Shown here: positions 677 through 61,814 of the stretch, piece after piece
Layout: each line of letters starts with the position of its first letter
Numbering within the stretch: the stretch's first letter is position 1
Assembly: GCA_020137815.1 (NCBI GenBank)
Contig: CM035351.1
Location: forward strand, 6,448,001-6,512,000
Direction: 5' to 3'
Length of the DNA: 64,000 nucleotides
From: Hormiphora californensis
Taxonomy: Eukaryota; Animalia; Ctenophora
Translations under genes and position numbers: made by a program
The notes under the pieces: generated by a model
Database searches by the model: none
What the model was told of the DNA's origin: nothing
The model's input: only the letters and a program-made list of their open reading frames with translations

Positions 677-3600
677 TTAGGCAGTGTATTCGAATTTTCG
701 AACGGATCCCACGCGCAAGCGGGACAGGGTATTCTCCCTGTAAAGAAGTTGTCGCGCGTTACATACCGGTTCAGGAGCCTTGTAGATCTGTTTGAGGATG
801 CGTCTCTCTGTTTCCCCGAACAAAACCGAGGGAGTGTTGACATCTGTTGTGAGTTGATCATCTACTGTTGAGATACAGCTGGGCGAGAGAAGACCGGGGG
901 AATCTGCAAAACGGAGCTGTTTAACCCTGTTTTTGCTACCTCCAGTTGCACTGCGGAGTGGGGTGATGAGATCTGATTTCTCAGCTGCCATTTCTGGGGT
1001 CACAAATCCATCCTCCACAGGTCTTGTTGCTGGTTCTGAGGGTTGCTGATTGGTGACTGGTAGGACCTGGCGTGACTCTTGGTGATCATCAATTGGGATA
1101 GGTTGTGAAGTTTCCACAGGTGGGGTATCTTCTTCTTCTCTATCAGCAGTAGCAACTGGAGGTGGTTCAGTGGTAGAAACTAGATCCACATGTGATGGTG
1201 AGGTCTCTGGTTCAGCAGGAATAGGGGCAGGCTGCTGTTCGATAGGGGCAGGCTGCTGGACGCCTATTTCTTCAACTGCATCACACATTTCATCTACTTC
1301 CATTTCTTCACAACACTCCACTGACTCAGTTGGTTCAGCCACCCCGGGTGTCTTCACAGCCACTTCATATTCCCCAACCTTCCCAGTTGTCTCATGAGGG
1401 AGAGGTTTGGTGGAGTCTACAGGGATGGTTTTTTCTAATTGTGGAATCACAGGGGTGGTGGATTCTGCGATAATAGGAGTGGAGGTTGCTAGTGCGAATT
1501 GTTCCTCAACTTCCATCTCTTCGTCCATGCACTCGTGGTACTCGGACATAGATATCTCGAGAGGTAAAGTAGCAACGGGTTCCTTAGCAACAAACTGTTC
1601 CTCAGCAACAACCTGTTCTTTGGCAACAACGGGTTCCTCAGCAACAACCTGTTCCTCAGCAACAAACTGTTCCTTAGTAACAACGGGTCCCTCAGCAACA
1701 ATATGTTCCTTGGCAACAACCGGTTCCTTAACAACAAGGAGTTCCTTAGCAACAACCGGTTCCTCGGCGATAACCGGTTTTTCAGCAACAATCTGTTCCT
1801 TGGCAACAACCGGTTCCTCCGGAACAACTGGTTCCTTAGCAACAACCGGTTCCTCAGCAGCAACAACTGGTTCCTCGGCAACAATCGGTTCCTCGCGAAC
1901 AACTGGTTCCTCGGCAACAACTGGTTCCTCTGCAACAGCAGGTTTCTTAGCAACCGGTTCCTCTGCAACAAACTGTTCCTCAGGGACAACAGGTTCCTTA
2001 ACAACAACAGGTTCCTCAGGGACAACCGGTTTCTCAGCAACAAACTGTTCCTCAGTAACCTCCTCAGAAACAACAGGTGGTATAACAATGAAGGGTTCTT
2101 CCAAAACAGAAGGATCCTCACTAGTTTGTACAAGAACGAATGCTTCCTCGGCAGGTCTCTCTGAGGTTGCAGGGAGGTCCGTCATGGCCTCTGCAAGGGC
2201 AGCAACATCATTAGTTGTATTGACAGTTTCCTCGATTTCGGAATCAATTATTTTAGTTTCTACATTATTTTTCTTTGGAGTATTCACATCTTTGACGTCG
2301 TGTTCCAGTTCCAGCGATGCGTTTGTTACAACCTGGCTATCCCTAGCTGGTGAAGCAGAAAACACCTCCTCCTGTGCAGGGTAGTGTACCTCCTCTTGTG
2401 CAGGGTAGTGTACCTCCTCTTGTGCAGGGCAGTGTACCTCCTCTTGTGCAGGGTAGTGTACCTCCTCTTGTGCAGGGTAGTGTACCTCCTCTTGTGCAGG
2501 GTAGTGTACCTCCTCTTGTGCAGGGCAGTGTACCTCCTCTTGTGCAGGGTAGTGTACCTCCTCTTGTGCAGGGTAGTGTACCTCCTCTTGTGCAGGGCAG
2601 TGTACCTCCTCTTGTGCAGGGTAGTGTACCTCCTCTTGTGCAGGGCAGTGCACCTCCTCTTGTGCAGGGCAGTGTACCTCCTCTTGTGCAGGGTAGTGTA
2701 CCTCCTCTTGTGCAGGGTAGTGTACCTCCTCTTGTGCAGGGCAGTGTACCTCCTCTTGTGCAGGGCAGTGTATCTCATCTTGTGCAGGGCAGTGTACCTC
2801 CTCGTGTGCAGGGCAGTGTACCTCCTCTTGTGCAGGGTAGTGTACCTCCTCTTGTGCAGGGTAGTGTATCTCCTCTTGTGCAGGGTAGTGTACCTCCTCT
2901 TGTGCCGAGTCTCGTTCTTGCTCAACAATAACCTGTTCTTGGGCTAGAATATCATCATGTATTGCTGAGGACTTCACAGGGGTTCCTTCCATCGCAGGAG
3001 CATGTATTCTTGTAGGTGTCTGTTCTCTCATGGGGCTGCCCTGGCCAGGAAGTTGACTGAGTGAGAAGTTCAAGTTTTCAGGTGCTTGTACACGTCGAAC
3101 AGGGGAAGCTGCACCAAAGTCTTCGTACACGGTTCGGGAGGCTAATGACCTGCGCAGTTCCCTGAGAGGACTGTCTGGAATGAACCCCTCAAACACTGGC
3201 AGATCCTCAACAACAGACGGTCTGGCTACCTTGACAGGCACTACAGGTGATTCTAGCTCTGTGGTAGTGGTGTATTTCCGTTCAATTGAGGCAGCAATGT
3301 CTTTAGAGGATACCTCGCCCTCGTCATCAGCATCCGTCTCCTGACCATATTTGGAAGTGATGAAGTTGGCAATGTTCCTGATACACTTGTCACCGTCCAA
3401 GGTGTCTCCAGTTCCCTGTCCATCCAGAGCAGCAAGATGACTCTCAAAGAAGTCATCGGACTCCTCGTGCTTGGTGGGACTCTCTGTTAGGAGGTCGTCC
3501 TCCTCCTCTGGAGTAAAGACACCGTGATGTTTGGTGGCTTCAAATAACAGCATGTTCCCTAGGTTGTTTATCTCATTCAGTCTTTCTCCCGGGACCACCG

Positions 3601-4227
3601 GGCTCTCTTCCGGTTTATTGCCTGCTAAACCACTCTTGTCAAGATTCAGGTTGGAGATACTTTCACAAAGATCTGAAATGCTGACATTGGCACTGGTCGG
3701 TGGGGTAACTTTCAAAATCTCCTCTTCTTCTTCATCTGGTTCTGCAAGAAGCATCATCTCGGTCTGCTCTCCAATATCACCGAAAATCAAGGGAAGCTGC
3801 AACCGGCAAGGCGTCTTCATAGAAAGATTCATCTCTAGTTTTGATCTCAGATTTGGGTGTCTGGTTTAATTTCCTAATGTCCAATTGGAACATTCCAACT
3901 GTAGACTCGAATACAGGAGAGTGAACATCGAAGAACTCCTCCTCTGCAACAGTTCCTGAAAGAAAGAGGCTCGTTAGAGACATCCAGGGTATAACAAATT
4001 GGAGCACGAGACAGTTTCGAGCAACTCAACCTACTTAAAGGGGTTGATGGTGCGGATTTGCCTGGAGTCTGGAACTTTGTACTAGGTCCAAATGATATCT
4101 CATCGTCTGAAAAGTCACTGAAACGAAGGTCGGTTACAAACTAAGTTGCTGGTTCCTAGTATGCCTATTAACATAATAAATTGGACTTTGCAATGTACCT
4201 GCAAGTGTTAATGGATTTTCTATCCAT
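677..4227 (-). CDS. Large acidic, repeat-rich, probably disordered protein (about 1150 aa), 3 exons, two apparent +1 homopolymer indels
   Basis: 1051-aa ORF 677-3832 plus upstream exons (ATG 4227; exon 2 DDEISFGPSTKFQTPGKSAPSTPL; exon 3 TVAEEEFFDVHSP...). Reads in frame if one base is removed at 4216-4219 and at 3783-3786. Many S/T-P sites; KQLRF near the C-terminus. Confidence 0.7.
1570..2060 (-). repeat. Coding degenerate 18-bp repeat encoding (E/K)EPVVA
   Basis: Unit gcaacaaccggttcctYR repeated; translation EEPVVA/KEPVVA/EEQFVA. Confidence 0.9.
2371..2903 (-). repeat. Coding 24-bp tandem repeat, about 22 copies, encoding QEEVH(Y/C)PA
   Basis: Unit cctcctcttgtgcagggYagtgta directly visible. 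Confidence 0.95.
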
Positions 4228-5137: not shown

Positions 5138-6784
<1,647 letters not shown>

Positions 6785-7346
6785 GATTAGAATTCACAGT
6801 TGGAGTAACGATGTGATGAGCAATTCAAAACGAGGAGAACAGAAGTGATCATGATTATCTGCGTGAAGGATCATGCGATATCCTCTGTCACGTGATTCCT
6901 CCTCTCGTTCTCATTGGTCCACCTGTCATTATCAATCATCGGCCGTTTCTCATTGTCATTTTGCTAGAGATAGATAGAGATTATAGTGAAAGAGGGAGAG
7001 AGAGAGAGAGATAGAGAGAAATCTTCGAGAAGTGAGACGTTAATCTGTCTTCTCGTACGAGAGAGATAACAACTCAAGAACAAAGAAATCATTAGCAACA
7101 ATTTGTAGCTTGAGTCACATTTCACAAAATATCTGATCATTTCTGACATCTGACTAGAAAAACAACTCTACACAAAAAGCGGGAAACTCATTTCCGGCAG
7201 TAAGACCTTCTGTCACGGCAAATGCCGAAATGTTGAACTTTTTACAGCTTCGTCAAGCCGCGCGTGACAGAGCCACTCAACCGGGAACAGTGAAAACTAA
7301 ACTTAAAATTTGATAATTTTCAATGTTATTTTGTTTTTCCTACTTT

Positions 7347-43695: not shown

Positions 43696-46500
43696 TCAGT
43701 CCATGTCGCCGTATAAAGCGGCCCAATCGTCCTCTGTCTCTGGTACAAATCTGGCCTCTCTCTCCTCTGCTGGTGTTAAGGTCTTCTTCACTTCTTCTTC
43801 AGACGCCAGCTTCCTTTTCAGACCCTTCGGTAACCAAACCTTCTTAACTGCAAGAAATAGGTCACATTATTGGCAAGAGTTGGTAAATCAGCGGTTTCGA
43901 TTCTGATTCAGGTTGGAAAGGGCGGCGGGGATGGTTCCAATAAACTACAAAAAGCCCAGTTTTACCTTGTTTCGTTCCTCCAAAGCACTCTTTCATCATG
44001 AGAAGGGCATGTGGCACTTCCTGGTCGGCCTCTTGCCAACACATTAATAAGATCATTGATATTCCGAGAGTCATTAGGCGTGATAAACGTATAGGCAGTA
44101 CCTGGGTAATAAGATAAAGGTTGCTTGGGTACACCTGTCTCGTAGTTGTTCTACAAGCTATAAAATATTCAATGCTAGGGTATCCTGCTATAGTAAGAAA
44201 ACGAGCCCAAGGTGTTAACTGTATTACTACAGAACTACAACATATATTAGTAGTGCACCTTGATTTACCTGCTTGATTTTAATCATAAAAACTAAAAATA
44301 GTGGCAGGTCAGAAGAATCTCGACACGCTATTACAGTACTGTAATAACGGGGTAATAACTCGCTATGACAGTACTGTAATCCTTTTCCGAAATTAATCGA
44401 GTACACCATATTATGGAGCACCGAGATAGAGAAGGTCGAGAGGTGGTCGAGTAAGGTAACAGGGAGTTATGAGATGATCTTACCACTTCTAGAAGCCCGG
44501 GCCGTCCTTCCTATCCTGTGAATGTAATCCTCAGTTGTGTTGGGGTAATCATAGTTGATAACGTTGGTGATGTCACTGATATCAATACCACGAGATGCCA
44601 CATCAGTAGCTATCAGTATCTTGATGCTGCCCCTCTTGAATCCTGTAGTAGGTGAAGGGGTATACTAGAGGGGTATACTAGAGGGGTATTGACTATTATA
44701 CTAGAGGGGTATTGACTATTATACTAGAGGGGTATTTAGGCGCATAAAGTTTAGAGGGTAATTGGAGTAAACAGAGAGGGTCGAGAGCAAGACAAGACTC
44801 GTGTTGAACAGATAACCATTGCATATTTCAAGCGGTTATATCTCTTGCCAAGAGCTAAGAATCAAGAAGAGACAACGAATCCTGACAACATAACTAAGAG
44901 CAACAAACAGACGGACAAACCTACAGAGCAACAAACGAATAAACCTACAGACCAACAAACGAATAAACCTACAGAGCAACAGACGGACAAACAACCTACG
45001 TTGTAAGATGTGTTCTCTGTCAGATTGCCGTTTATCCCCATGCATGGCTTCTACCGGCCACCTTTCTCTCTTCAAATCCTCGGCCAAGTCATCAGTCATC
45101 TTCTTGGTGTCAGTAAATACCAGCGTCTTGTTCGCCTCGCCCTCATCCCTGATCTGCTTCAGTAGGACCTTCAACTTTTCAAATTTCTCAAACCCTTCCA
45201 ACACCATAACGACCTGTTTTATCGCGTGGTTTGCTACCAGACCTTCCGAACCCAGGGTGATCTGGAGGGGGTTTTGGAGGAACTTGCCAGCCAGATCCTG
45301 TACCTCAACAGGCCATGTTGCTGATAGCATCAGTGTCTGGCGGTCTGGTCTTATTTGGGAGAGAATAGCGGTGATCTGCTGCTCGAAACCCATATCAAGA
45401 AGTCTATCAGCCTCGTCCAGTATCACATAGGAACAATCTCGCAGGGAGCACTGTCTCGTATCTAGCAGTTCAATTAGTCTCCCAGGGGTTGCTACAACAA
45501 GCTCAGCACCGTCAGCAAGACTACGGAGCTGTTGGTTCTTGGATGCTCCCCCAGTAAGAGCGAGGGCTCTAATCCGAACTGCAGCTGGCAAACTCCTCAC
45601 TAACACTCATTACCTGCTGAGCTAAGTTCACGTGTGGGACACAGGCAGAGTGCTATAGGGCCTTCTTTCGCAGGGGGCTGGGCTGTTATGTGAAGGAGAG
45701 CAGGAAGAAGGTACCCCAAGGTCTTGCCGCTCCCTGTTTGAGCAATCCCGATTAAATCCTTGCCAGACAGGGCTATTGGCCACACTTGGCTCTGGATGGG
45801 TGTGGGCTGGTCATATCCCTTTCTCCGGAACACCGTCTTGAGGCATTGGGGAAGGATATCTCCTCTATATCTAGAACTGGCCGTGGTGAATCCTCTGTCA
45901 CTGTCATGGAGTGGTGATCCCGGTATGCAACTGATCTCCGTTTCAGCCTCGGTCACTCGTAGCCGGACTCTCCTGAGATTGCAGTGATGGTGGTGGTGGT
46001 ACCTACCTGGCAGCCATGATCTCCATGTTTACCTACCTTGTACAACTCTTTAAAGATCTCTTTTAGCACCACTCCCGTCCAGTTGACTGGTTTCAAGCTG
46101 TGTGGTATATCTTCCTTATTACCCCAGCCCCTCACCCCAAACTCTCCCCGGCTGGATCCACCCCTGCCACCCTTTCGTGGGGGTGGTCCTCTAGATGAAG
46201 GAGCAGGAGGGGGTCGTGATGAGGGTGGAGGATCATTAGATCTAGGAGGCCTTGATGAGGGAGGATCATTAGATCTAGGGGGCCTCGATGAGGGAGGATC
46301 ATTAGAACCTGGGGGTCGGGGAGGGCCTAATCTGGGCCGCAAAGCAGGTTGCTCAGAACGGGAGGGTAATCTTGCGGTCTCCTGTCGAGACTGAGTGGTA
46401 GTGGATCTGTATTGAGATGTGGGGGCTGGGATTTGGGCCCACGAGTCCTCAGCAGGCCTTGAGATCAGCTGGGTTCGTTTGGATGCTGGCTGTTCGACAC
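43696..46500 (-). CDS. DEAD-box RNA helicase, DDX5/DDX17 (Dbp2)-like, multi-exon with apparent indels; 5' end may extend to ATG 47057
   Basis: Q-motif [57 protein letters not shown]; last exon ends [11 protein letters not shown]. Confidence 0.85.
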
Positions 46501-47275
46501 TGAAATGAAAGGAGTGTTAAATAGAGCTATTTCGGAGAAAAAATGTCTGCCCGAAACATACATTTCCTCAATATTTACCATGTATTTTGCTGAATGGAAC
46601 GCCTTACCTTGTGCCGCAGTGGATGTTTACTTACACTTAGTTTGTGTATACATTCAATACACGACACACACTCTACCTGCACTCAGAGATCTTCCCGATC
46701 TCAGATACAATCATCTAATAATGCTGTTACCTGAACATCAGTGGTGAATACATACTGTGTAAAAGAAATCACAAAAAGCAGAACCAATAACTTACAATGG
46801 TTAACATCAAGATAAATCATTTGGTATTTATCCGAAAACACACACCTGTCAGTAGAGAGGTCCATATCATCATCATCAGCCCTGTTATCAAGTCCTCCTG
46901 GTTTCACTAACATCGTCAAATATTCCCTGATTTTATATCGCTTGTCCTCCAGTGAGAGCTCGATAGTTCCACCAAAGTACAGATATTCACGGTCCACTTG
47001 CTGGTGAGATAGGAGAGAGACAAGCTCTAGACATGTCTGAGGGGTAAATGTACCCATATCTATAAGAGAGGATGAGTTATATTGATAGAGGGGTTAAGGG
47101 CAGATATATAGGGTTGACAATGAAACGAGTTATTAAAAAGCGTGGTTGTCTTCTTGAAACAGAAGTATACTTTGTATAACTGTAACTAATTCGTACAAAT
47201 AGCAATATTTTAAAACCCGGAATCAATACCCCGATTATGATACAACATATTTCTCTCTCTCTCTCTTTCTTCAAA

Positions 47276-48312
47276 CTATTGGTTCATGGGATTCAGAGGT
47301 GATTTCTTCCACTCCTTCCGTAGCATTTGTCGGATTTGAGACAGCCGGAGAGAGGGGTTCTCAGCTCGAAGCTGGGAGATTCTACCCTCTTCAAATGCTG
47401 TCCAGGCAGCCTTTCATCCTTTTTTCAGGATGCATGTCGGCCCCATCTCCACCAATATCGAGAGCCGCAATGGCTTGTTCCACGTTTTGGGCTACCTCAG
47501 TGTCCGTCATAACTCGGTTGAGGTTCTCGTGTATCGGCTCCTCCTGGGGGAAGGAGGGTGTTACATGGGGAGGGGGTGAGGTTACACTTGTCATAAAACA
47601 TCTGTCAAGAGGAAGAAAATGAATAATTCGGTTCATGCTCCGCGCGCGTCCCATCCCATGCGCGATCCCTACACTGCCTGGCCGACTACTTTGCACTGAT
47701 CCCTGAGCAGTCTGTGCTAGTTGTTGGCGCTCTCTGACCCTGATTTGTCCCATGATTGCTTCCTACCTCAGCCGCTGCAGCCTCTTTTGCCTCCTGTTCA
47801 GCTTGTGCTTCCTGCCGTCTCACCAGCTCCGCTTGAGTGATCTTCTTAGGTGGTACCTTCGCTTTAGTGCTCTCCTGCAACTGCTGCTCTTCCTCAGCCA
47901 ACATGTCAGCGTTCTGTTTCTTCCGTTCTAGAGCTGCCAACCTTTTCGCTTCCTCAGCTTTCTGGGTGTATTAGTCCGATCTGAGGTTACAAGTGGGGAG
48001 GTAGTATAGGGGAGGAGCCAGGTGTTCCAAATTCAAATGGGATCTTTGATTTTGCAATGGGGAGGTAACTGGCGAGGGGGTGATTGAGGTAGTATGGGGG
48101 AGGAGGTAGAGGGAGGATAGACATATTGAGCAGTGTCACAATTCACACACACCTTTCTCTGTTGTTTCTTATTAGCTTGTTTATCATCGTCCGCCCACCG
48201 CTCATCTTCAGCTGCAGCTGATGCCACTGCTTTCTTCTCCTCTGCAATGGCATTCTTTCTGGCTCGGGCCTCCTACTGCCTTGCTGTTCTCACCAACAAA
48301 CTTTTTAGGCAT
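47276..48312 (-). CDS. CCDC124: CCDC124/Lso2 homolog, 3 exons, two apparent +1 indels
   Basis: MPKKFVGENSKAV(E)ARARK, WADDDK, HPEKRMK(AAW)...ENPSLRLSQIRQMLRKEWKKSPLNPMNQ*. Confidence 0.9.
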
Positions 48313-48879
48313 GATTCCCGCTAGATTTAAGGGATGTGGTGAGAGGAGGGGTAGTTTGGAGTCGTGTGTTAGTAAAACAGGGGGATTTGTGTTGTTAAAA
48401 AGGCAAAATATAATAATCTACAAATAAATAGAGAGAGAAGCACGTGTGTTTGTTGTTCAGGGTGTGGGGGGTCTGAGTAAAGGGTGTCATTGGTACACTT
48501 TGAAACGTGTGTGAGAGAGATTTGATAGAGTTTTATTGGATCCGTTCCAAAGCGTACAAGGGGAGAGAAAAACGCAATGATGAAAATTTCATAATAAATT
48601 ATTACTTACTAACATAGCAGCTTGAGGAAACTAACTTGTGGGATAGAACATGTATGTTATATCTTGTAACTTGATATTATGTGTCTGGCATTTCTCTCTT
48701 TCTCAAAACATGGATACAGTTTGTAAAAAGTTCACGCTCTTGAGAAGGTAGGTAACAATCTGTTTTCAAAACACTCACTCACTAGGAAACGGAGTTTACA
48801 TGGGTCACATTTGTATGTATACGCTCTGAAAGGTAAAAGATAAAATGTAAAACTCTCTCTCTCTCCCTGTCTCTCTCTC

Positions 48880-50215
48880 CTAATGCTCTGCGTCAACTCC
48901 ATTCTCTTTCCCATCTCCCTCACTGTCTTTCTTCCTCTTACTCCGCTTGCCCCTCTCTTCATCTCTATGGCCGCTCCGGGACGATTCCCTCCGCGATGAC
49001 TCATCACCCCGTGATGACTTCCGACTGGATTTCTTTTCTGATTTCCGTGTAGGGCGACCTCCGTGATCTTGATCTATGTTCCGTGCTCCTATCTGCAGTT
49101 CGTCTCCTACTGCTGCCCTCCCGCCTCGAGGAGTGTTCTCTGGATCTCCTCCTTGGCCTCCTCCTACCCTCCTCATCAGACGAGCCCCCTCCCCCACCGT
49201 TACTATCCTCCCCAAAGGCTGGTGGTGGGAGGAGGAGGGGCGGGGCGATGGCACCCCCAGGAGGGGGTAACATAGAGGGCATACCGGGTGGAGGGAACAT
49301 GGTAGGGGGAGGTAGAGGTCCAGCCATTGATAGGGGATGTTGGAAGGCCACAGGTTTGGCACCATCCTCTTGTTTCACCTCTCTCATCATCTCCAGGGGA
49401 GCTAGACCTGGTGGTGCGAGTTGTGGTGGTATGGGAAGGAAGGAGGTAGGGGCGAACATGCCCATAGGTGTCGGCATCATGGCCCGGACTGCTGAGAGGG
49501 ATGACATGACTTGGGATGGAATCTCCTTCTTAGCTCCAATCACCCCAATACTGCCACCCAGACCAGGTGCCTTGGGCAGCTCAGGAAGAGCGGGCAATCT
49601 GCCAAGAACGGCAAACTCACGGTTCTTCTCCGCCGCTATACCACGTACAGATTTCTGTTTGTCACAATACGACTTCCAAGAATCCTCATTGAACCCATAA
49701 TTAAAGTAGTCAGTAAGATCGGCACCTGGCAATCTCCAGGGCTTCTCTTCACACATTGTATCAATATCATAATCATAGATTGGAACACCGTTAATATTAC
49801 CCACTGCATTCACATCTATTGTCCGCTTACTAGATGTTACAGTTACCGGGGCTGATACTTGAGGTATGGTGGGTGGTAATGCTGTGATGACACTAACTAC
49901 TTTCGGTTGATTTACCGACTGTTGGGGGAATGACATGCCGTAAGGACCAGGAGCTTTCTTATTAATCTCTCCGATTGTTATTTCAATATCATCATCTGAG
50001 TCTTCCTCGCTTTCCGAGGCACCCGAGTCAACACCATTCCCAAATTTAGACACGAACTCAGTGGCGTTAGCGTCTAAACTGGATTTGGTCTCGTCTCCCT
50101 CGGGGGGTTTGGTTGCTCCTTCATAAAGCCAGCTACTGTCTTGGGACGAGGGAGCGGTGTCAGCTGCGGTGGTGGTGGTGGGAGGAATCACGTTGGTTAT
50201 CTCTAGAGCAGCCAT
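48880..50215 (-). CDS. FIP1L1: Pre-mRNA 3'-end processing factor FIP1; apparent +1 indel at about 49053
   Basis: Fip1 motif [28 protein letters not shown]; acidic N-terminus; Pro-rich then R/S/E-rich tail continuing in the 48880 frame. Confidence 0.93.
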
Positions 50216-50536
50216 TTTACATCTCCTGTAGGGAAGTGAGGGTTTGTTAGCAGGGAAGACATGGTTTGTTTGGAGCCAGGAGAGATCAGGGAACTGGGAA
50301 GGATTGATTTGTTAGGATGATGTACTAGATAGTGAAGGAATCAGGGGAGTCAGGGAGTAAGAAGAAATAAAGAAAGGAAAGAGAAGTGGAAACTGAAACG
50401 GGATCAAGTTACTAGGTACTCTCTAATAAAACACCTGTGTACATGTAAGAGATCTGGTATAAAACAAACGTACAAAATAAAAGTAATAACTTAGTTGGTA
50501 ATAAATTAAACTCAAAAACATCCCCACAACCCCTCT

Positions 50537-51100
50537 CTATGCTTGTTTGTATCTCCACAGAGGGTTAGGACCATCTTCTATCAATTTATCTGCCGTCCAT
50601 AGCCGCTCATCGAGGGGGAACCGACAGGAGATAATATCGGTATCAGACTTAAGTTCCTCCTTTAATTTCTTGCTGATGTCGTCCATCATCCCTTCTCCTC
50701 CGAACACTATTACTGTGTCGTAGGGTGATAGGTCGTACTGAAATAGAAAGAGGAAGAGTTACAAAGGGTGGGATATTTGTTAGGGAAAAGGAGGGGTATA
50801 ATTTCACACCAAACCTACTGGAATCCACTACACCAACTCCATAATTACCTTCCACAGATCAGCCCGTTTGAAGGATGTCCTGGAATTAGTTCCACTAACT
50901 AGACTCTTCCACCTGGAGTATAGAACCAACCAGATATTCAACTCAATCCCATCGGCTTGAGGGAAGCCCTTCTTAGCAGCCTCTATAACCACCCTTCCAT
51001 CTCCACTACCAAGATCTATTAAACGTGATGTAGCTGTAGGTCGGAGTTCCTTGAAAATCAGATCGATCTGAGAGATGGGACAGCTAGGTGTGAGATGTGG

Positions 51101-51174
<74 letters not shown>

Positions 51175-51339
51175 ACTGACCGTAGTCTCTGTGGCTGGAA
51201 CATAAGGGAGGACATGTTTCCGAAGAGCAGGAGTAATAAAGGGTCCTGCGAGGGCGAGTGAAGCAGCTACACAACCTACACATCCTGCTGCAATCCATAG
51301 CTTCCTCCGTTTTCCACCACGTTCTGAGGGTTCAGCCAT
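50537..51339 (-). CDS. FAM173B: FAM173-family (ATPSCKMT/ANTKMT) lysine methyltransferase, 3 exons
   Basis: PFITPALRKHVLPYVPAT, IDLGSGDGRVV, GIELNIWLVLYSR, DLWK|YDLSPYDTVIVFG, SCRFP. Paralogue (A or B) uncertain. Confidence 0.88.
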
Positions 51340-52066
51340 AGAATACGCTATAGAGAAAGGGAGGGATTAGAAACAAAGAGGGACGGGGAGGGGGGACTAC
51401 AGGCTTCTGGGTTCTGGTAAGGGAGGAAGAAAAACGGCATTTATTTTAACAGATTTGCAACAAATCAACAAAAAACTATTCATCGCGGTATTAATATGAT
51501 CAAGTGTACTGTGTCGTGAAATGAAACAATAGCACATATAATATAGGGAGATGGTAGTAGTAGTAGAAAGACAATGAAGACAATAACAGAGCCAACTAAG
51601 TTGTTTAGAAAACACACACAAACTTTGAGCGCTGTACTCTTGAGGAACAAAACAGGTGATTTGTGAACAAATTGTCACCCAAAAACACAAAAGAAAGCTA
51701 TATGACACAGAACACATTTAAGCACACACACACATTGAGAACTACTGAAAAACTGTTTAAAAACCTAAAAACAGATCTCCATTTTTCTCATCTTACCCTC
51801 CCTGTTTCTACATCATACCAAAATATTTTGCTAACAAAGCTACTACGTAAAAAACATGTTACAGTATTTATATAGAGTTGATAATGTATCGGAATGAGCT
51901 CAGTTTTTTCACTAACAACACGTTATATTAATATTGGGATGTGGAAACTTGACACACTCACTCTACAAAACATTTTACACAATCCGTAACCATGGAAACC
52001 AGCGGTTAGTAACCATGGTAACCAGTGGTTACACAAAAAACCAGTCCCATCATGTGACGTCATCGC

Positions 52067-53317
52067 TTACGTCATAGCCCCAAAGACAGCGTTATGGCGG
52101 CAAATACTCGGGCCATACTCGTCATACTGTGCCTTGGTGTGGCATACCTCATAAAACTCGGGTGTGGATGCCAAGAGACTTCCACCAAACCAAACTGCAT
52201 ACCTCTGCATGTGGTGAGACACTACATTCGTTTCAATGGGCTTGGGTTTCAGCTTTCCTCCGCTCAGCCTCTCACTCTCCTGCAGTCGGAGGTTCACTCT
52301 CTTCTTGATATCTCGGCCCAACTTCTTGTTGAAATCTTTGAACATAGTGGATCCTCCGGAGAGGACGATATTCTTGTAGAGACCACGACGGGTATCAATT
52401 GGGCATCCCGAGATGACATCATCAACTACCTCACTAATAGTGGTCCTGTAGTCAGGGTTACAGAACTCAGGATGGAAGAAAATCTCCGGTCCCAGGAACC
52501 TCTCATAGCCCACATCAATATTAAACTTCTGCTTCGTGATATCATTAATTCCCTCGTAGGTTTTGAATTTATCAGGATCTGTATCGTATTTCTTGAACTC
52601 CGCCACGATGTCAGGACACACATAGCAGTACTTTTCCTTAATCGCCTTGGCAGTTTCCAGGCTCTGCTCAGGAGGGATACCCTTCTCTCGGTCTCGCAGT
52701 AGGGTCTGGATGAAGTAGGTGATGTCTCGTCCAGCGATGGGGATGTGCTTGATACAGCTTCCAATAACATACCCATCAACTACTGGGATAACGTGGGTCA
52801 CACCATCCCCACTATCGACCACACAACCCGTCAGGGTACGTTGGCCAATCTCACGGGTTGTCCACGAGGCAGCAATGGCAAGGACAGCCTGGACGGCAAT
52901 GTAGATCCCGGGAACATTGAAACTTTCAAACATGATCTCAGCGGTGTATTCCCTGTTTTCAGGGAGATTCAGAGGTGGCTCAGTCAGCAGGAAATAGTGA
53001 TCCTCAGGCTCCGCTCGGAGGTATTTAAAAATGCATTGTTCCCAATATTTCTCCATCAGATCCCAGTCCTCGACCATTCCATGACGAATGGGGTATTTTA
53101 CGGAGTAGTTAGGTTGAGAGAGGGCCTCATTTCCGATATAGAAATCAAGATCATCCACGCCCCTGGTGCCCCGTCGAGGACCATCACCAATGCCAGCACT
53201 CTCACGGACAGCGATGGCCGAGGGGATGATGAATTGGGGCTCAGAGTTACCCGCTAAACCCATCTTGGTGTACCCAGTTCCATTGTCAATAACGCACGGT
53301 GGCAGCATTCCCGTCAT
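52067..53317 (-). CDS. ACTR3: Actin-related protein 3, intronless CDS
   Basis: [57 protein letters not shown]. Confidence 0.98.
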
Positions 53318-53776
53318 GGTGGCGGTTGTTGCTATAGAAACAGGGAGAAGGGTTAAACTGGGTTGTTGCTATAGAAACAGAGAGAAGGGTTAAAATGTGT
53401 TGTTGCTATAGAAACAGAGAGGGGGTTTATATATCGATAGGAAACAGAGCGAAGGGGGTAACTAAAAGGATATCAGTTTGGGTGTGGTTTCTTGCTAGAT
53501 CGAACGGGAGAGAGGGGTTGTTGTTGGTTAGAATCAGAGATTATGGGATACTACATGCCAGGATCAGTATATAATTCTCTAGAATGAATTATTCTCTAGA
53601 ATGAACTGGAGAAGTCCAGTGACCCAATCTTATCTGATCACCTGGATCTGATAAAAGCAGATCACATATCCCAACTGGCACTTTTAAGCAGGGTGGGGTC
53701 AGAGATAAAACAAACCACGTCACGGATCAAAAACTATGAAATACTTACTGAAATTACAAAAAACTCGACTAACATT

Positions 53777-54608
53777 CTATTCTGAATAAATATTCCGGCT
53801 ACACCCAATATCCTTTAGGGCAGCTTCATCCCAGGGCCCAAATATATTGTCCTTATGGCGCTGTAACCTTACGAAAACAAGGGGTACCAATACCAAGCAC
53901 ACCACCACAATTGCACACAGTGGTAGTACAAACACGGCGCTGACAAGGGCTGCTAAACCCACAGTTGATAAGACAAGGAGTCCTGTTAGAGGGAGTGCAC
54001 GGTCCCTGAACCTGTCCCTAATTATTGGTAGAATCCCGTAAAACAGGATAGCAACAATCATTGTCAGCAGCACACTGTTAACATTATCTAGCCGGGATGC
54101 TAGACACACTGCAGAGAATATAGCCGCGTTTAGAGAGACACAAGTTGACATGTAGTCAGCAGGGAGGGGTGTATAGTTCTGTATTGCAAAGTTAACCAAC
54201 AATCCAACAGTTACCATTGCATAGATAGTATCGTCACTAATCGTCCTGGTAAGAGGACTCAATAATTGGAGCCATGCCAAACAGGAACCCAGAAAGGAGA
54301 GTTACAGTTTTCAGTTGGTGTAGGGAGAACCCCACCACTGCGAGGTAGCTGACTATTGTAACAGCAGTCATTACCAGCAGCACACCATCTGATACGGTGG
54401 GATTGAGAAGGTGAAGTAGGATAAAGGAGGCCGTGCAGCAGAGTTGTTGGAGGGGAAACTGGCCCTGGTAGGAGCACTCTCCCAGGGTGTAGAGACGGAG
54501 GTTCTTGTTACGGCGGAGAGAGGAGAGGAAGAGTTCGGTATCGGTGTGGTTGTCCGGGTAGGGTTGTGGGCGGTAGAGGATCTTTTCAAACTTTACAGTA
54601 CCTGGCAT
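53777..54608 (-). CDS. PIGC: GPI-GlcNAc transferase subunit PIG-C/GPI2; apparent +1 indel at about 54255
   Basis: FEKILYRPQPYPDNHTD, LTRTISDDTIYA, SLNAAIFSAVCLASRL, KDNIFGPWDEA across two overlapping ORFs. Confidence 0.93.
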
Positions 54609-54722
54609 TGCTGTAAAAATAACAGGGGGAGTGTTAACTAAGTGTTAGTACTAAAACAAGAATTAATCGATAAATGATAACAAACAAATTAAAAGTTCAA
54701 TAAATAATAATAATAATTAAAA

Positions 54723-56773
54723 TCATGAAGGCTCAACAAATTTGTTAGCGAAATAGTGCGGTGCAGCCTCTGTCAACCAATTCGATTTAATCACCGTGAT
54801 ATCCTTCATGAAATTCTGCGATGAGGATAACACTTCATTGAAAATCACATACTTAGGTCGCTCTGAAACCATAACACTTCCTGGGTGTATGGCCAGATCG
54901 AAATTGTCTCTGAAAGTTTTATACACCCCTGTGTGATGGTAGTAGGCAGAGTTCAGGTACATGCCCTGCGCCAGGCACTCCCTGATACATTCCTCAGCCC
55001 CTGTAGATGTGATCTCCTCCTCAGTCTGGATGGTACCTCTTGTACAAGTGGGTCAAGTTTAGTTTTAATGTTCTCCGCCTGGTTTAGCACGTGGTAGTTC
55101 AGGAAGTTATCCTTGCACACTTGTTTACTCTTTCTGTTTCGGATGAAGAACTGGTAGGCGTTCAGTAAACTGATCGTGTCACCCTCTCTAGCAGCAAACT
55201 TGAACTTGCACGCTGTGGCACGTGTCTTGTTACCCATGGGCCTCATGAAGACACTCTTTACCTGGAGCATTGCGATAATAGTGAGGATCTCCTCAGTACA
55301 ACCAAACCGCTCACTTTCTAGAAGTGCCACTGTCAGCATGGGGTCTACAGGGAACTCAACCATTATGAATCCCCGGCGGGTCAAATTACACTCGTCATCG
55401 ATGCCACCCAGGGCGTGTAACGTCTCTAATGTCTTACACAAATGAGAGGAGGGAGGAGCGGTAAGGAAGTGAAATTTTACTATGTTAGAAATTCCAATCG
55501 CCTTGAGTTGGAGTATTGTACTAAAGAGATTACTTCTAGTCATTTCAGGAGGCGTTTCCAGGGAGAAATTGTTGAAAGTGTTCTCTGTATACAATCTGAA
55601 CACCTCACCCTGCCCAATGCGGCCAGCACGACCGGCCCGCTGCACTGCCGACGCTTTAGAGATCTTCGATTTGACGATAATTTCCAATCCAGAATGAGCA
55701 TTGTACGTTTTATAACGACCCAAACCACAGTCAATTACATACACAATCCTGGGTATAGTTACAGAACTCTCAGCCAGATTAGTCGAGAATATAACCCTCC
55801 GAGTATTACTGCCCACCTCCCTCGTATCAAACACTTTGATCTGCTCCTCATTTGGCAGGCTGCCATACAATGGGAACACTCGAATGTTCTGTTTGGGTTT
55901 TACCAGTTTCCTCACCCTCTCCTTGGCCGCCTTGATGGCCTCCACCACCTCCTCCTGACTAGTCAGGAACACCAGTACATCTCCCATGGGCTTGTGTTCG
56001 TGTATTGACATTGCCAGATCAACTGCTGCTTTCAGGTAGTCAGGGACAGGACTGACAGCATAGTTCACATTTACAGGATAACTCCGACCCTCAACAGACA
56101 GGATTGCACAATTTAATGTCTTGTCTGCATCACCCGTTACCTTTGTACAAAAGAACCGTTTGATGCTTTCTGCATCTGTAGTTGCGGAGGTTAAAATGAG
56201 CCTCAAATCAGGGCGCTGCTTCAGAATCTTGCGCAGCAGGGCAATCAGTAGATCTGTGTTTACATTCCGTTCATGGACCTCGTCGATGACAATGATAGAG
56301 TACCGGTCCAACAGTGGATCCTGCATTATCTCCCGGAGCAGTGACCCGTCTGTCATGTACACTATCTTGGTGTGATCAGAAGTGTTCCTCTCAAACCTAA
56401 TCTGATAGCCAACATCATTTCCTATATGGGAGTGCATCTCATCTGCAACCCGGGTAGCGAGTGTGACTGTAGAGTTCCGTCTTGGTTGTGTCACCGCGAT
56501 ACGTCTTCCTTCACACGCCCAATTTGATTCGGCCAAATATTGGGGGATCTGAGTACTTTTTCCTGAACCCGTTTCACCTATGACAATCGTGACAGCATTC
56601 TGCTCAACAAGATGAAGAATGTGATTGCGATAAGTGAAAATAGGCAGTTTCTGACGTTGAGCAGTAAGTGATAGATTCTTGTCTTTGTTGAAAATGAAAT
56701 TAGACCTGTCTACTGCAGAACTGAATTCTCGCTGTTTCGACGACGGGGCTTCTCCACCTGGTTTCCAAAACAT
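54723..56773 (-). CDS. DHX35: DEAH-box helicase DHX35; apparent indel(s) at about 55020-55060
   Basis: MFWKPGGE start, GETGSGKSTQIPQY, TQPRR, DEVHER, SAT, QRAGRAGR, HA2, then OB-fold IHPGS...W...APHYF in the next frame. Confidence 0.9.
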
Positions 56774-57208
56774 GATGTGGCTCCTAAAATAATAATAATA
56801 ATATAACATATATACATTTGATATACCCAGAACCTAATGGCTAGTGACTAGTGTTGTATGAACATCTCCCTACCGCGATTGTATTTTACAATACAATAAA
56901 ATACAAAATAAACATTTATAGTCCGCTCTTTAACTGTCCGTTTTACGGTTCAGCACAAGTTGCTGTTGGAAGAAGAAAAATTCATCATTCCATCCTCTTT
57001 CATCCCCAACAGCCCTCGCTCCAAAAGCGGCTAGTGATTTTAGTCACTAAAATCACGTAGGATCTCTATTATAATTTGGAGATGAACGTCGAAGTCGAAG
57101 CCGTTCGTTCAGCGGTATCTAAGCGACAGTGCTCCTTCATTAAAACATTTAATGTGACCAAAGCTGTGAAGCAATGGTGAAATTACGTAACTATGGAAGC
57201 TAAGATGG

Positions 57209-57642
57209 GTGTATCATGAGTGTATCATGAGTGTGTCATGAGTGTATCATGAGCGCTCATGAGACGTTTTTAGGTGTTTCAACGTCTCATGAGCGCTCAT
57301 GAGTGTATCATGAGTGTATCATGAGCGCTCATGAGTGCTCATGAGACCTTGCTCATGAGCGCTCATGAGACATATGTCTCATCCCATCTCTGTTTCAATG
57401 TCTCATGAGCGCTCATGAGACGTTTTGACCTACATGTGCTCATGAGTGTATTATGAGAAATGTCTCATGAGACGTTAGGGTTAGGGTTGGGTTTACGGTT
57501 GGGCTAGGGTTAGGGTTATCCTTTAGGTCTAGGGACCCGTAGGGATAGGGTTATGGTTGACCCATAGGCTTGGACCTAGCCCTACCCTCTACGGGTCCCT
57601 AGACCTAAAGGAAAGCCCTAACCCTAACGTCTCATGAGACAT
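57209..57642. mobile_element. Truncated copy of the tcatgag-repeat palindromic MITE
   Basis: Matches the interior of 59875-60752 but lacks the termini. Confidence 0.8.
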
Positions 57643-61714: not shown

Positions 61715-61814
61715 NNNNNNNNNNNNNNNNNNNNNNNNNNNNNNNNNNNNNNNNNNNNNNNNNNNNNNNNNNNNNNNNNNNNNNNNNNNNNNNNNNNNNN
61801 NNNNNNNNNNNNNN
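61715..61814. other. Assembly gap (100 N)
   Basis: Run of N. Confidence 1.

Follow-up and report, generated by a model that had tools for sequence, protein, structure and literature searches.

We analyzed a 64,000-nt stretch of the genome of the ctenophore Hormiphora californensis (contig CM035351.1, positions 6,448,001 to 6,512,000; hereafter the window, in whose coordinates all positions are given), in which seven conserved housekeeping genes, DHX35, PIGC, ARP3, FAM173B, FIP1, CCDC124 and a DDX5/DDX17-like DEAD-box helicase gene (DDX), lie one behind the other on the minus strand. RNA data demonstrate spliced leader (SL) trans-splicing at the predicted acceptor of ARP3, and trans-splicing is likely at all seven genes. 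The cluster is real, trans-spliced and unusually dense, and its organization as an operon is plausible but unproven. SL trans-splicing is already known in ctenophores; operons there would be new, and the first to be reported in the phylum.

Spliced Leader Addition at the ARP3 Acceptor

The initial annotation of this DNA had proposed that the seven genes are resolved by trans-splicing at acceptors placed next to their start codons. The gene for which this could be followed in RNA was ARP3:

52067..53331, minus strand: ARP3 gene, single coding exon; acceptor AG 53333-53332, exon start 53331, ATG 53317, stop 52069-52067

The RNA runs matching the cluster are marine metatranscriptomes, and their contigs are mostly 95-99% like the window, which fits the heterozygosity of 3.2% reported for Hormiphora in the sections of PMC8527503 used here. 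The alignment of RNA contigs comprised 32 of 80 pieces, plus depth bins, and those stretches without RNA cover (e.g., 46126-47067 and most of PIGC) are uninformative. Among these pieces, a 368-nt contig of X2, a cDNA library (record 15), matches positions 52985-53333 with 3 mismatches in 349, and stops matching precisely at the acceptor AG of ARP3. Beyond 53333 this contig has 19 letters that are not those of the window, and which, once the AG is added, are identical to the 21-nt 3' end of the 44-nt ctenophore leader. The strand orientation of the loose letters was confirmed by adapter and poly(A) loose ends. The 19 letters were not found in the window with up to 3 mismatches allowed, and no copy of the 44-nt leader was detected in the 64 kb, the best match being of 14 nt.

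The behavior of this short sequence in other transcripts was also studied. A scan of metagenome and metatranscriptome contigs with the 19-mer gave at least 120 loci. Among the matches listed, 94 of 120 carry the 21-mer at 30 nt or less from the 5' end of the contig, in sense orientation and followed by unrelated sequences, in such a manner that the first ATG after the leader is found at a median of 9 nt downstream and at 15 nt or less in 62 of the 94. The other 26 listed loci include 24 internal matches without a following AG, which were taken as chance, the remaining two being L056 and L074. A 44-nt consensus rebuilt from the contigs with longer 5' ends (L038, L073, L113 and L117) is, letter for letter, the printed leader of Hormiphora californensis, which ends in AATTTGAG. 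When the 120 listed loci were compared with the window by blastn no match was obtained, so none of these loci represents an mRNA of the cluster. The sections of PMC8527503 used here report this leader on 56% of the Hormiphora Iso-Seq reads, and 718 copies of it in the genome.

The claim of trans-splicing thus stands for ARP3, whose acceptor AG is joined to the leader in RNA, whereas at the other six genes, for which the RNA pieces listed showed no 5' end, what was found is the right anatomy only. The initial annotation had also cautioned that a gtaagt donor at 53748 could be spliced in cis to ARP3. Such a donor is not needed, as the ARP3 acceptor carries a leader that is absent from the window.

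A related possibility is that the leader is a shared exon spliced in cis, with a genomic copy of it beyond the window starting a long transcript that is alternatively joined to the seven acceptors. The window stops 7.2 kb upstream of DHX35, with a 100-N assembly gap at 61715-61814, which leaves some space for this, but the absence of a leader copy extends to those 7.2 kb, and the same leader is found on the 94 unrelated transcript contigs among the matches listed. Moreover, the authors of PMC8527503 take the shared exons for artefacts that arise in the mapping of trans-spliced leaders, and altogether we hold a cis-spliced leader exon to be very unlikely.

Three other candidates were considered and rejected. 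The alpha-tubulin gene of the window (5141-6790, minus strand) was considered as the origin of leader reads and dropped; it has no acceptor before its ATG and presents an ordinary 5' untranslated region (UTR) of its own, a CCAAT-like box and a first intron starting as ATG/gtaagt. An origin in chaetognath leaders was discarded too, given that the 12-mer shared with the chaetognath leaders in Table 3 of PMC2481426 occurs only as the reverse complement, and that the contig scan and PMC8527503 showed the leader to be that of ctenophores. Finally, L056, L074 and L079 were rejected as SL RNA genes, being paralogous loci of one data set (L056 at 60-440, L074 on the reverse strand). In all three, the full leader is found inside a longer sequence, and the around 170 nt and the coding exon that come after it are similar from locus to locus. 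The sequence surrounding the leader in this small gene family may be DNA, and its members could be retrocopies of trans-spliced mRNAs. Part of the 718 leader copies given for the Hormiphora genome could be explained by such loci.

Splice Acceptors at the Seven Gene Starts

Reading of the sequence placed the seven genes on the minus strand where the initial annotation had them, and the stop-to-ATG gaps that it had given for the successive junctions from DHX35 to DDX (114, 459, 727, 321, 567 and 218 nt) were identical on recomputing them from the stop and ATG coordinates. In addition to ARP3, the cluster is made up of the following genes:

54723..56783, minus strand: DHX35 gene; predicted trans-splice exon start 56783, AG 56785-56784, ATG 56773, stop 54725-54723
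53777..54610, minus strand: PIGC gene; ATG 54608, stop 53779-53777
50537..51347, minus strand: FAM173B/ATPSCKMT gene; acceptor AG 51349-51348, ATG 51339, introns 51180-51068 and 50848-50738, stop 50539-50537
48880..50225, minus strand: FIP1 gene; acceptor AG 50227-50226, ATG 50215, stop 48882-48880
47146..48320, minus strand: CCDC124 gene; acceptor AG 48322-48321, ATG 48312, stop 47278-47276, poly(A) addition site around 47146
43696..47059, minus strand: DDX5/DDX17-like DEAD-box helicase gene; acceptor AG 47061-47060, ATG 47057, stop around 43696

All seven acceptor strings quoted in the initial annotation are present, in such a way that each ATG has a YAG (Y, pyrimidine) located 2-14 nt upstream, behind a pyrimidine tract. 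A branch-point-like motif, similar to CTAAC or TACTAAC, lies 20-50 nt further upstream at all seven starts. In order to compare this layout with the rest of the window we applied a rule by which the nearest AG has to be 2-15 nt upstream of the ATG, a pyrimidine has to occupy position -3, and pyrimidines have to make up no less than 70% of the preceding 20 nt. This rule selects 63 of the 1991 ATGs of the window (3.2%) and 5 of the 7 gene starts; the remaining two, DHX35 and FIP1, satisfy it if one takes the AG located three bases further upstream, which is the one quoted in the initial annotation. The presence of acceptors before the start codons of the cluster exceeds chance.

At ARP3, the acceptor belongs to a short repeated sequence:

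53324..53421, minus strand: 37-nt tandem array, 2.6 copies (Tandem Repeats Finder), each copy with a tttctatAG/caacaac acceptor

Three identical acceptors precede ARP3 in this array, and only the copy proximal to the ATG was seen in use. The two other copies could be alternative trans-splice sites.

A chance arrangement would mean that the AG sites of the genes other than ARP3 are unused, and that their mRNAs have ordinary, unspliced 5' UTRs. This is hardly credible: even though only one acceptor has RNA backing, and seven co-oriented neighbours are expected around once in 64 runs, full 3' splice-site anatomy is found at 7 of 7 starts against a background of 3.2%, and the leader-to-ATG distances are like those of the 94 real leader-bearing contigs. 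From this anatomy and these distances, the leader is predicted to be added also to the mRNAs of the other six genes.

Gene Content, Reading Frames and Relatives

The cluster holds seven conserved genes in 13.1 kb, and in the remaining 51 kb of the window a Pfam match was obtained for only three open reading frames (ORFs), in two cases under the Pfam cut-off. The average in H. californensis is around 7.7 kb per gene. The cluster is far denser than its surroundings.

The identities of the genes were supported by domain and structure matches. For DHX35, the top match among solved structures (PDB) was DHX35 itself with 584 bits, followed by other DEAH helicases with 536 and around 470, and the Pfam domains DEAD, Helicase_C, HA2 and OB_NTP_bind were detected. 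PIGC matches Pfam GPI2 in two pieces, one frame giving profile positions 1-122 and a second, overlapping frame 120-270, and 53856-54000 of this gene is covered by one RNA contig (record 30). ARP3 has the Pfam Actin domain and around 77% identity to named ARP3 proteins from many phyla; its 3' UTR reaches at least to 51536, as shown by RNA contigs of four runs (records 4, 5, 12, 20, 21 and 28). Exon 2 of FAM173B matches proteins named FAM173B or ATP synthase subunit C lysine N-methyltransferase. The product of FIP1 contains the Pfam Fip1 motif, and RNA covers 48826-49715 of the gene and the 3' UTR down to 48714 (records 10, 11, 26 and 27). CCDC124 was identified by Pfam Ccdc124. The last gene encodes a helicase with Pfam DEAD and Helicase_C domains, and its top PDB matches were Dbp2 and DDX17. 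ATG 47057 is its predicted start, the first exon being linked to the rest only via an in-frame GT-AG join (46845-46500).

Three cis introns of the cluster genes were confirmed as GT-AG by RNA joints. These are intron 2 of FAM173B (50848-50738), the CCDC124 intron 48152-47962, seen in two RNA runs, and the DDX intron 44483-44102, confirmed in two RNA runs as well. A fourth, a third intron of CCDC124, is shown by an RNA loose end at 47766. Intron 1 of FAM173B (51180-51068) is a putative one, and a (GA)34 microsatellite at 51103-51170 occupies most of it.

In correction of the initial annotation, the frames of DHX35 and PIGC are broken in the assembly by single-base indels. In DHX35 there are two single-base insertions near 55045-55020 with respect to P0259, a 1895-aa protein model of Pleurobrachia bachei, and in PIGC one extra base near 54255 with respect to the same model; no intron fits at either of the two places. 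RNA contigs over the DHX35 break show 2 gap letters, at positions that are not shown (records 8 and 23). The breaks are likely to be indels of the assembly or of the haplotype, and not a sign of pseudogenes.

The model P0259 itself is a fusion. According to its Pfam domains it consists of a partial DHX35 copy (residues 1 to around 450), a full DHX35, PIGC and ARP3, which correspond to 52067-56783 of the window, so the DHX35-PIGC-ARP3 order is also found in this species. The ARP3 of the window is identical to that of P0259 in 416 of 416 residues, and DHX35 in 565 of 578 (98%); at 90% identity the ARP3 protein clusters with ARP3 of Bolinopsis microptera and Mnemiopsis leidyi and with the P. bachei model. 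The fusion is almost certainly an annotation artefact of a tight trans-spliced cluster, this being the kind of annotation error that such clusters cause, and the partial DHX35 copy may represent haplotype redundancy.

Other searches for linked genes were made. Longer proteins containing PIGC, sought as a stand-in for synteny, included no fused form, and the best match had 42% identity. A search for fused forms among representative sequences gave no others than those of a slime mould and of butterflies, in which the fusion partner is unrelated, and no ctenophore names were found among the relatives of FAM173B and PIGC.

Intergenic Regions and the Operon Reading

If the cluster is an operon, one long minus-strand precursor would cover it at least partly, and 3'-end cleavage together with leader addition would cut this precursor into single-gene mRNAs, with the 44-nt ctenophore leader being joined at the acceptor located 2-14 nt before each ATG. 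The promoter would lie upstream of 56.8 kb. On balance, we lean slightly towards co-transcription of at least the tight pairs, that is, towards a cluster that is polycistronic at least in part. Co-transcription is most likely between DHX35 and PIGC, CCDC124 and DDX, and ARP3 and FAM173B, and less certain between PIGC and ARP3, FAM173B and FIP1, and FIP1 and CCDC124. A single unit of seven cistrons, with one promoter upstream of DHX35, would be the first SL-resolved operon in Ctenophora, and we consider it unlikely in that complete form.

The features that bear on the tight junctions are the following:

54609..54722, minus strand: spacer between DHX35 and PIGC, 114 nt; 52% T, with TACTAAC, a pyrimidine tract and the acceptor AG 54612-54611
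47060..47145, minus strand: distance from the CCDC124 poly(A) site to the DDX acceptor, 86 nt, from an RNA contig end and the acceptor AG 47061-47060
51440..51445, minus strand: AATAAA, candidate poly(A) signal of ARP3, 98 nt upstream of the FAM173B exon start

At three junctions the distances are short, which favours co-transcription. The gap between DHX35 and PIGC had been described as U-rich and provided with a TACTAAC, and both properties were found in it; an AATAAA-type signal was looked for in this spacer and not found. It offers at most 112 nt of room, which must also hold the 3' UTR of DHX35 and the branch point, tract and acceptor of PIGC. Between CCDC124 and DDX, the loose end at 47146 of one X1 contig, with 11 A in sense (11 T on the plus strand), corresponds to the poly(A) site of CCDC124. 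After ARP3, the cover of the 3' UTR to 51536 leaves at most 189 nt before the acceptor of FAM173B.

The other three junctions are looser. Between FIP1 and CCDC124, the UTR of FIP1 is covered to 48714 and an AATAAA is found 217 nt before the acceptor. Between FAM173B and FIP1, one X4 contig reaches around 50469 by depth arithmetic, which would leave around 244 nt. No RNA was found in the 459-nt gap between PIGC and ARP3 among the pieces listed.

The alternative to an operon with the best standing is a dense cluster of genes transcribed independently, each from its own small promoter located in, or overlapping, the 3' region of the upstream gene, with a short outron replaced by the leader and without any polycistron. 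Such an arrangement is quite possible, though short of probable. It is difficult to accommodate in the 114-nt gap between DHX35 and PIGC, which already has to contain the DHX35 3' UTR and the splice signals of PIGC, as well as in the 86 nt and the at most 189 nt left at the other two tight junctions, and the spacers consist of pyrimidine-rich splice-site sequence, with nothing promoter-like in them. On the other hand, the gaps of 321-727 nt could hold promoters, and a consensus TATATAAA is found at 53431, 100 nt before the used acceptor of ARP3. TATA-like strings also occur inside the transcribed 3' UTR of ARP3 (51872), so such strings carry little weight.

Further observations that favour independent genes weigh at the same time against an operon. 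None of the six junctions was seen bridged by an RNA contig in the pieces listed and the depth bins, in a type of data, contigs, that drops rare precursors. As the leader is present on at least 56% of the mRNAs in this lineage, its presence alone is no marker of an operon, and with a leader of such general use isolated genes carry it too. Within the window, a lone Myb gene (24934, minus strand) also has a ttcttcAG located 5 nt before its ATG, and this isolated gene is, judging from its sequence, likely to be trans-spliced, so having an acceptor just before the ATG is no peculiarity of the cluster genes. From the literature, the part used here of a 2021 methods paper (PMC7986045) places ctenophores among the groups without reported operons, full-text searches found no report of a ctenophore operon, and operons have gone unreported in ctenophores in spite of the manual annotation of Hormiphora based on Iso-Seq.

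Other points against the operon concern the strength of its individual supports. The leader was seen at 1 of 7 acceptors in the RNA pieces listed, and the poly(A) site of CCDC124 rests on one X1 contig whose RNA nature is guessed and in which other letters follow the A-run. The gaps of 459, 321 and 567 nt have room that could be taken by internal promoters. A row of seven co-oriented genes is no rare outcome of chance. Finally, the gene order in P0259 is not independent evidence, as the two species are near-identical (100% in ARP3 and 98% in DHX35).

Two observations were made on the region around the start of the cluster. In a low-depth X1 contig (2.2), 40 unmatched letters link positions around 56808-56868, upstream of DHX35, to the spacer at 54702, and from there on to around 54578 in PIGC. 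This contig may have been misplaced owing to low complexity, may be DNA, or may come from a structural variant that lacks DHX35. Further upstream, the segment 56887-57369 is matched by diverged RNA contigs of three runs; tandem arrays of 10/11 nt occupy 57205-57369, and there is a hairpin of 11 bp near 57040. No family was found for any ORF of this segment, which could be the promoter or the outron of the cluster, or a repeat.

Comparison with Known Systems

The system closest to the one described here is the SL trans-splicing of pleurobrachiids, described in Hormiphora californensis (PMC8527503). It has the same leader, an AG acceptor and a very short 5' UTR, and no difference was found, so the trans-splicing described here is a known system at a new locus; the words operon and polycistron occur 0 times in PMC8527503.

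Chaetognath operons (RPS14-PCNA of Spadella cephaloptera, PMC2481426, and those of Paraspadella gotoi, PMC12460157) are alike in containing co-oriented housekeeping genes and in the use of one leader set for operonic and single genes, without an operon-specific leader. In the part of PMC12460157 used here, operons in the chaetognath genome are called by the presence of a leader and less than 250 bp between genes, a distance that three junctions of the ctenophore cluster would satisfy. They differ in belonging to another phylum with another leader, and the 12-letter resemblance between the leaders, being on the wrong strand, is a coincidence. Furthermore, the chaetognath operons are backed by expressed sequence tags and genome-wide data, and the spacer in the case studied in a bacterial artificial chromosome is of 3 nt, whereas 4 of the 6 stop-to-ATG gaps are longer than 300 nt here.

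The RFC140/flp operon of Hydra (PMC3273482, in the part used here) is likewise from a non-bilaterian animal. Its intergenic region is a few hundred nt long and contains a poly(A) signal, a T-rich stretch, a pyrimidine tract and an AG acceptor. Between two sites of this operon, one located 9 nt past the stop and the other 7 nt past the ATG, there is a segment of 436 bp. The Hydra leader, as the ctenophore one, is also used on single genes. In contrast, the Hydra operon has two genes and was proven with a construct carrying two reporters, along with a control that had no promoter and a mutant of the acceptor, whereas the ctenophore cluster has seven genes and is known from its sequence and from RNA contigs.

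Nematode operons of the SL2 type and the operons of tunicates (Ciona and Oikopleura) resemble the cluster in their content of RNA-processing and housekeeping genes. The nematode SL2-type operons use a specialised downstream leader, of which none was seen in the ctenophore cluster, and the spacers of Ciona and Oikopleura are much shorter than those found here. In C. elegans there are around 100 nt from the poly(A) site to the trans-splice site, as at two of the ctenophore junctions.

If the operon reading is true, operons would be present in one more animal lineage that uses an SL, supporting the idea that they arise readily once a leader system exists, and polycistronic transcription would be part of gene regulation in a lineage that is maybe sister to all other animals. 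The cluster would then provide a concrete locus in which this can be tested with the existing RNA data of Hormiphora and Pleurobrachia.

Other Features of the Window

Outside the cluster, the window contains the alpha-tubulin gene, the ORF with a Myb domain and a repetitive ORF of 1062 aa. No Pfam family above the cut-off was found for the latter, its sole match being DUF2345, below the cut-off. This frame (680-3865, minus strand) encodes a very acidic protein in which an 8-residue unit (PAQEEVHY/C) is repeated in tandem around 27 times, and which has another block of EEPVVAK-like repeats.

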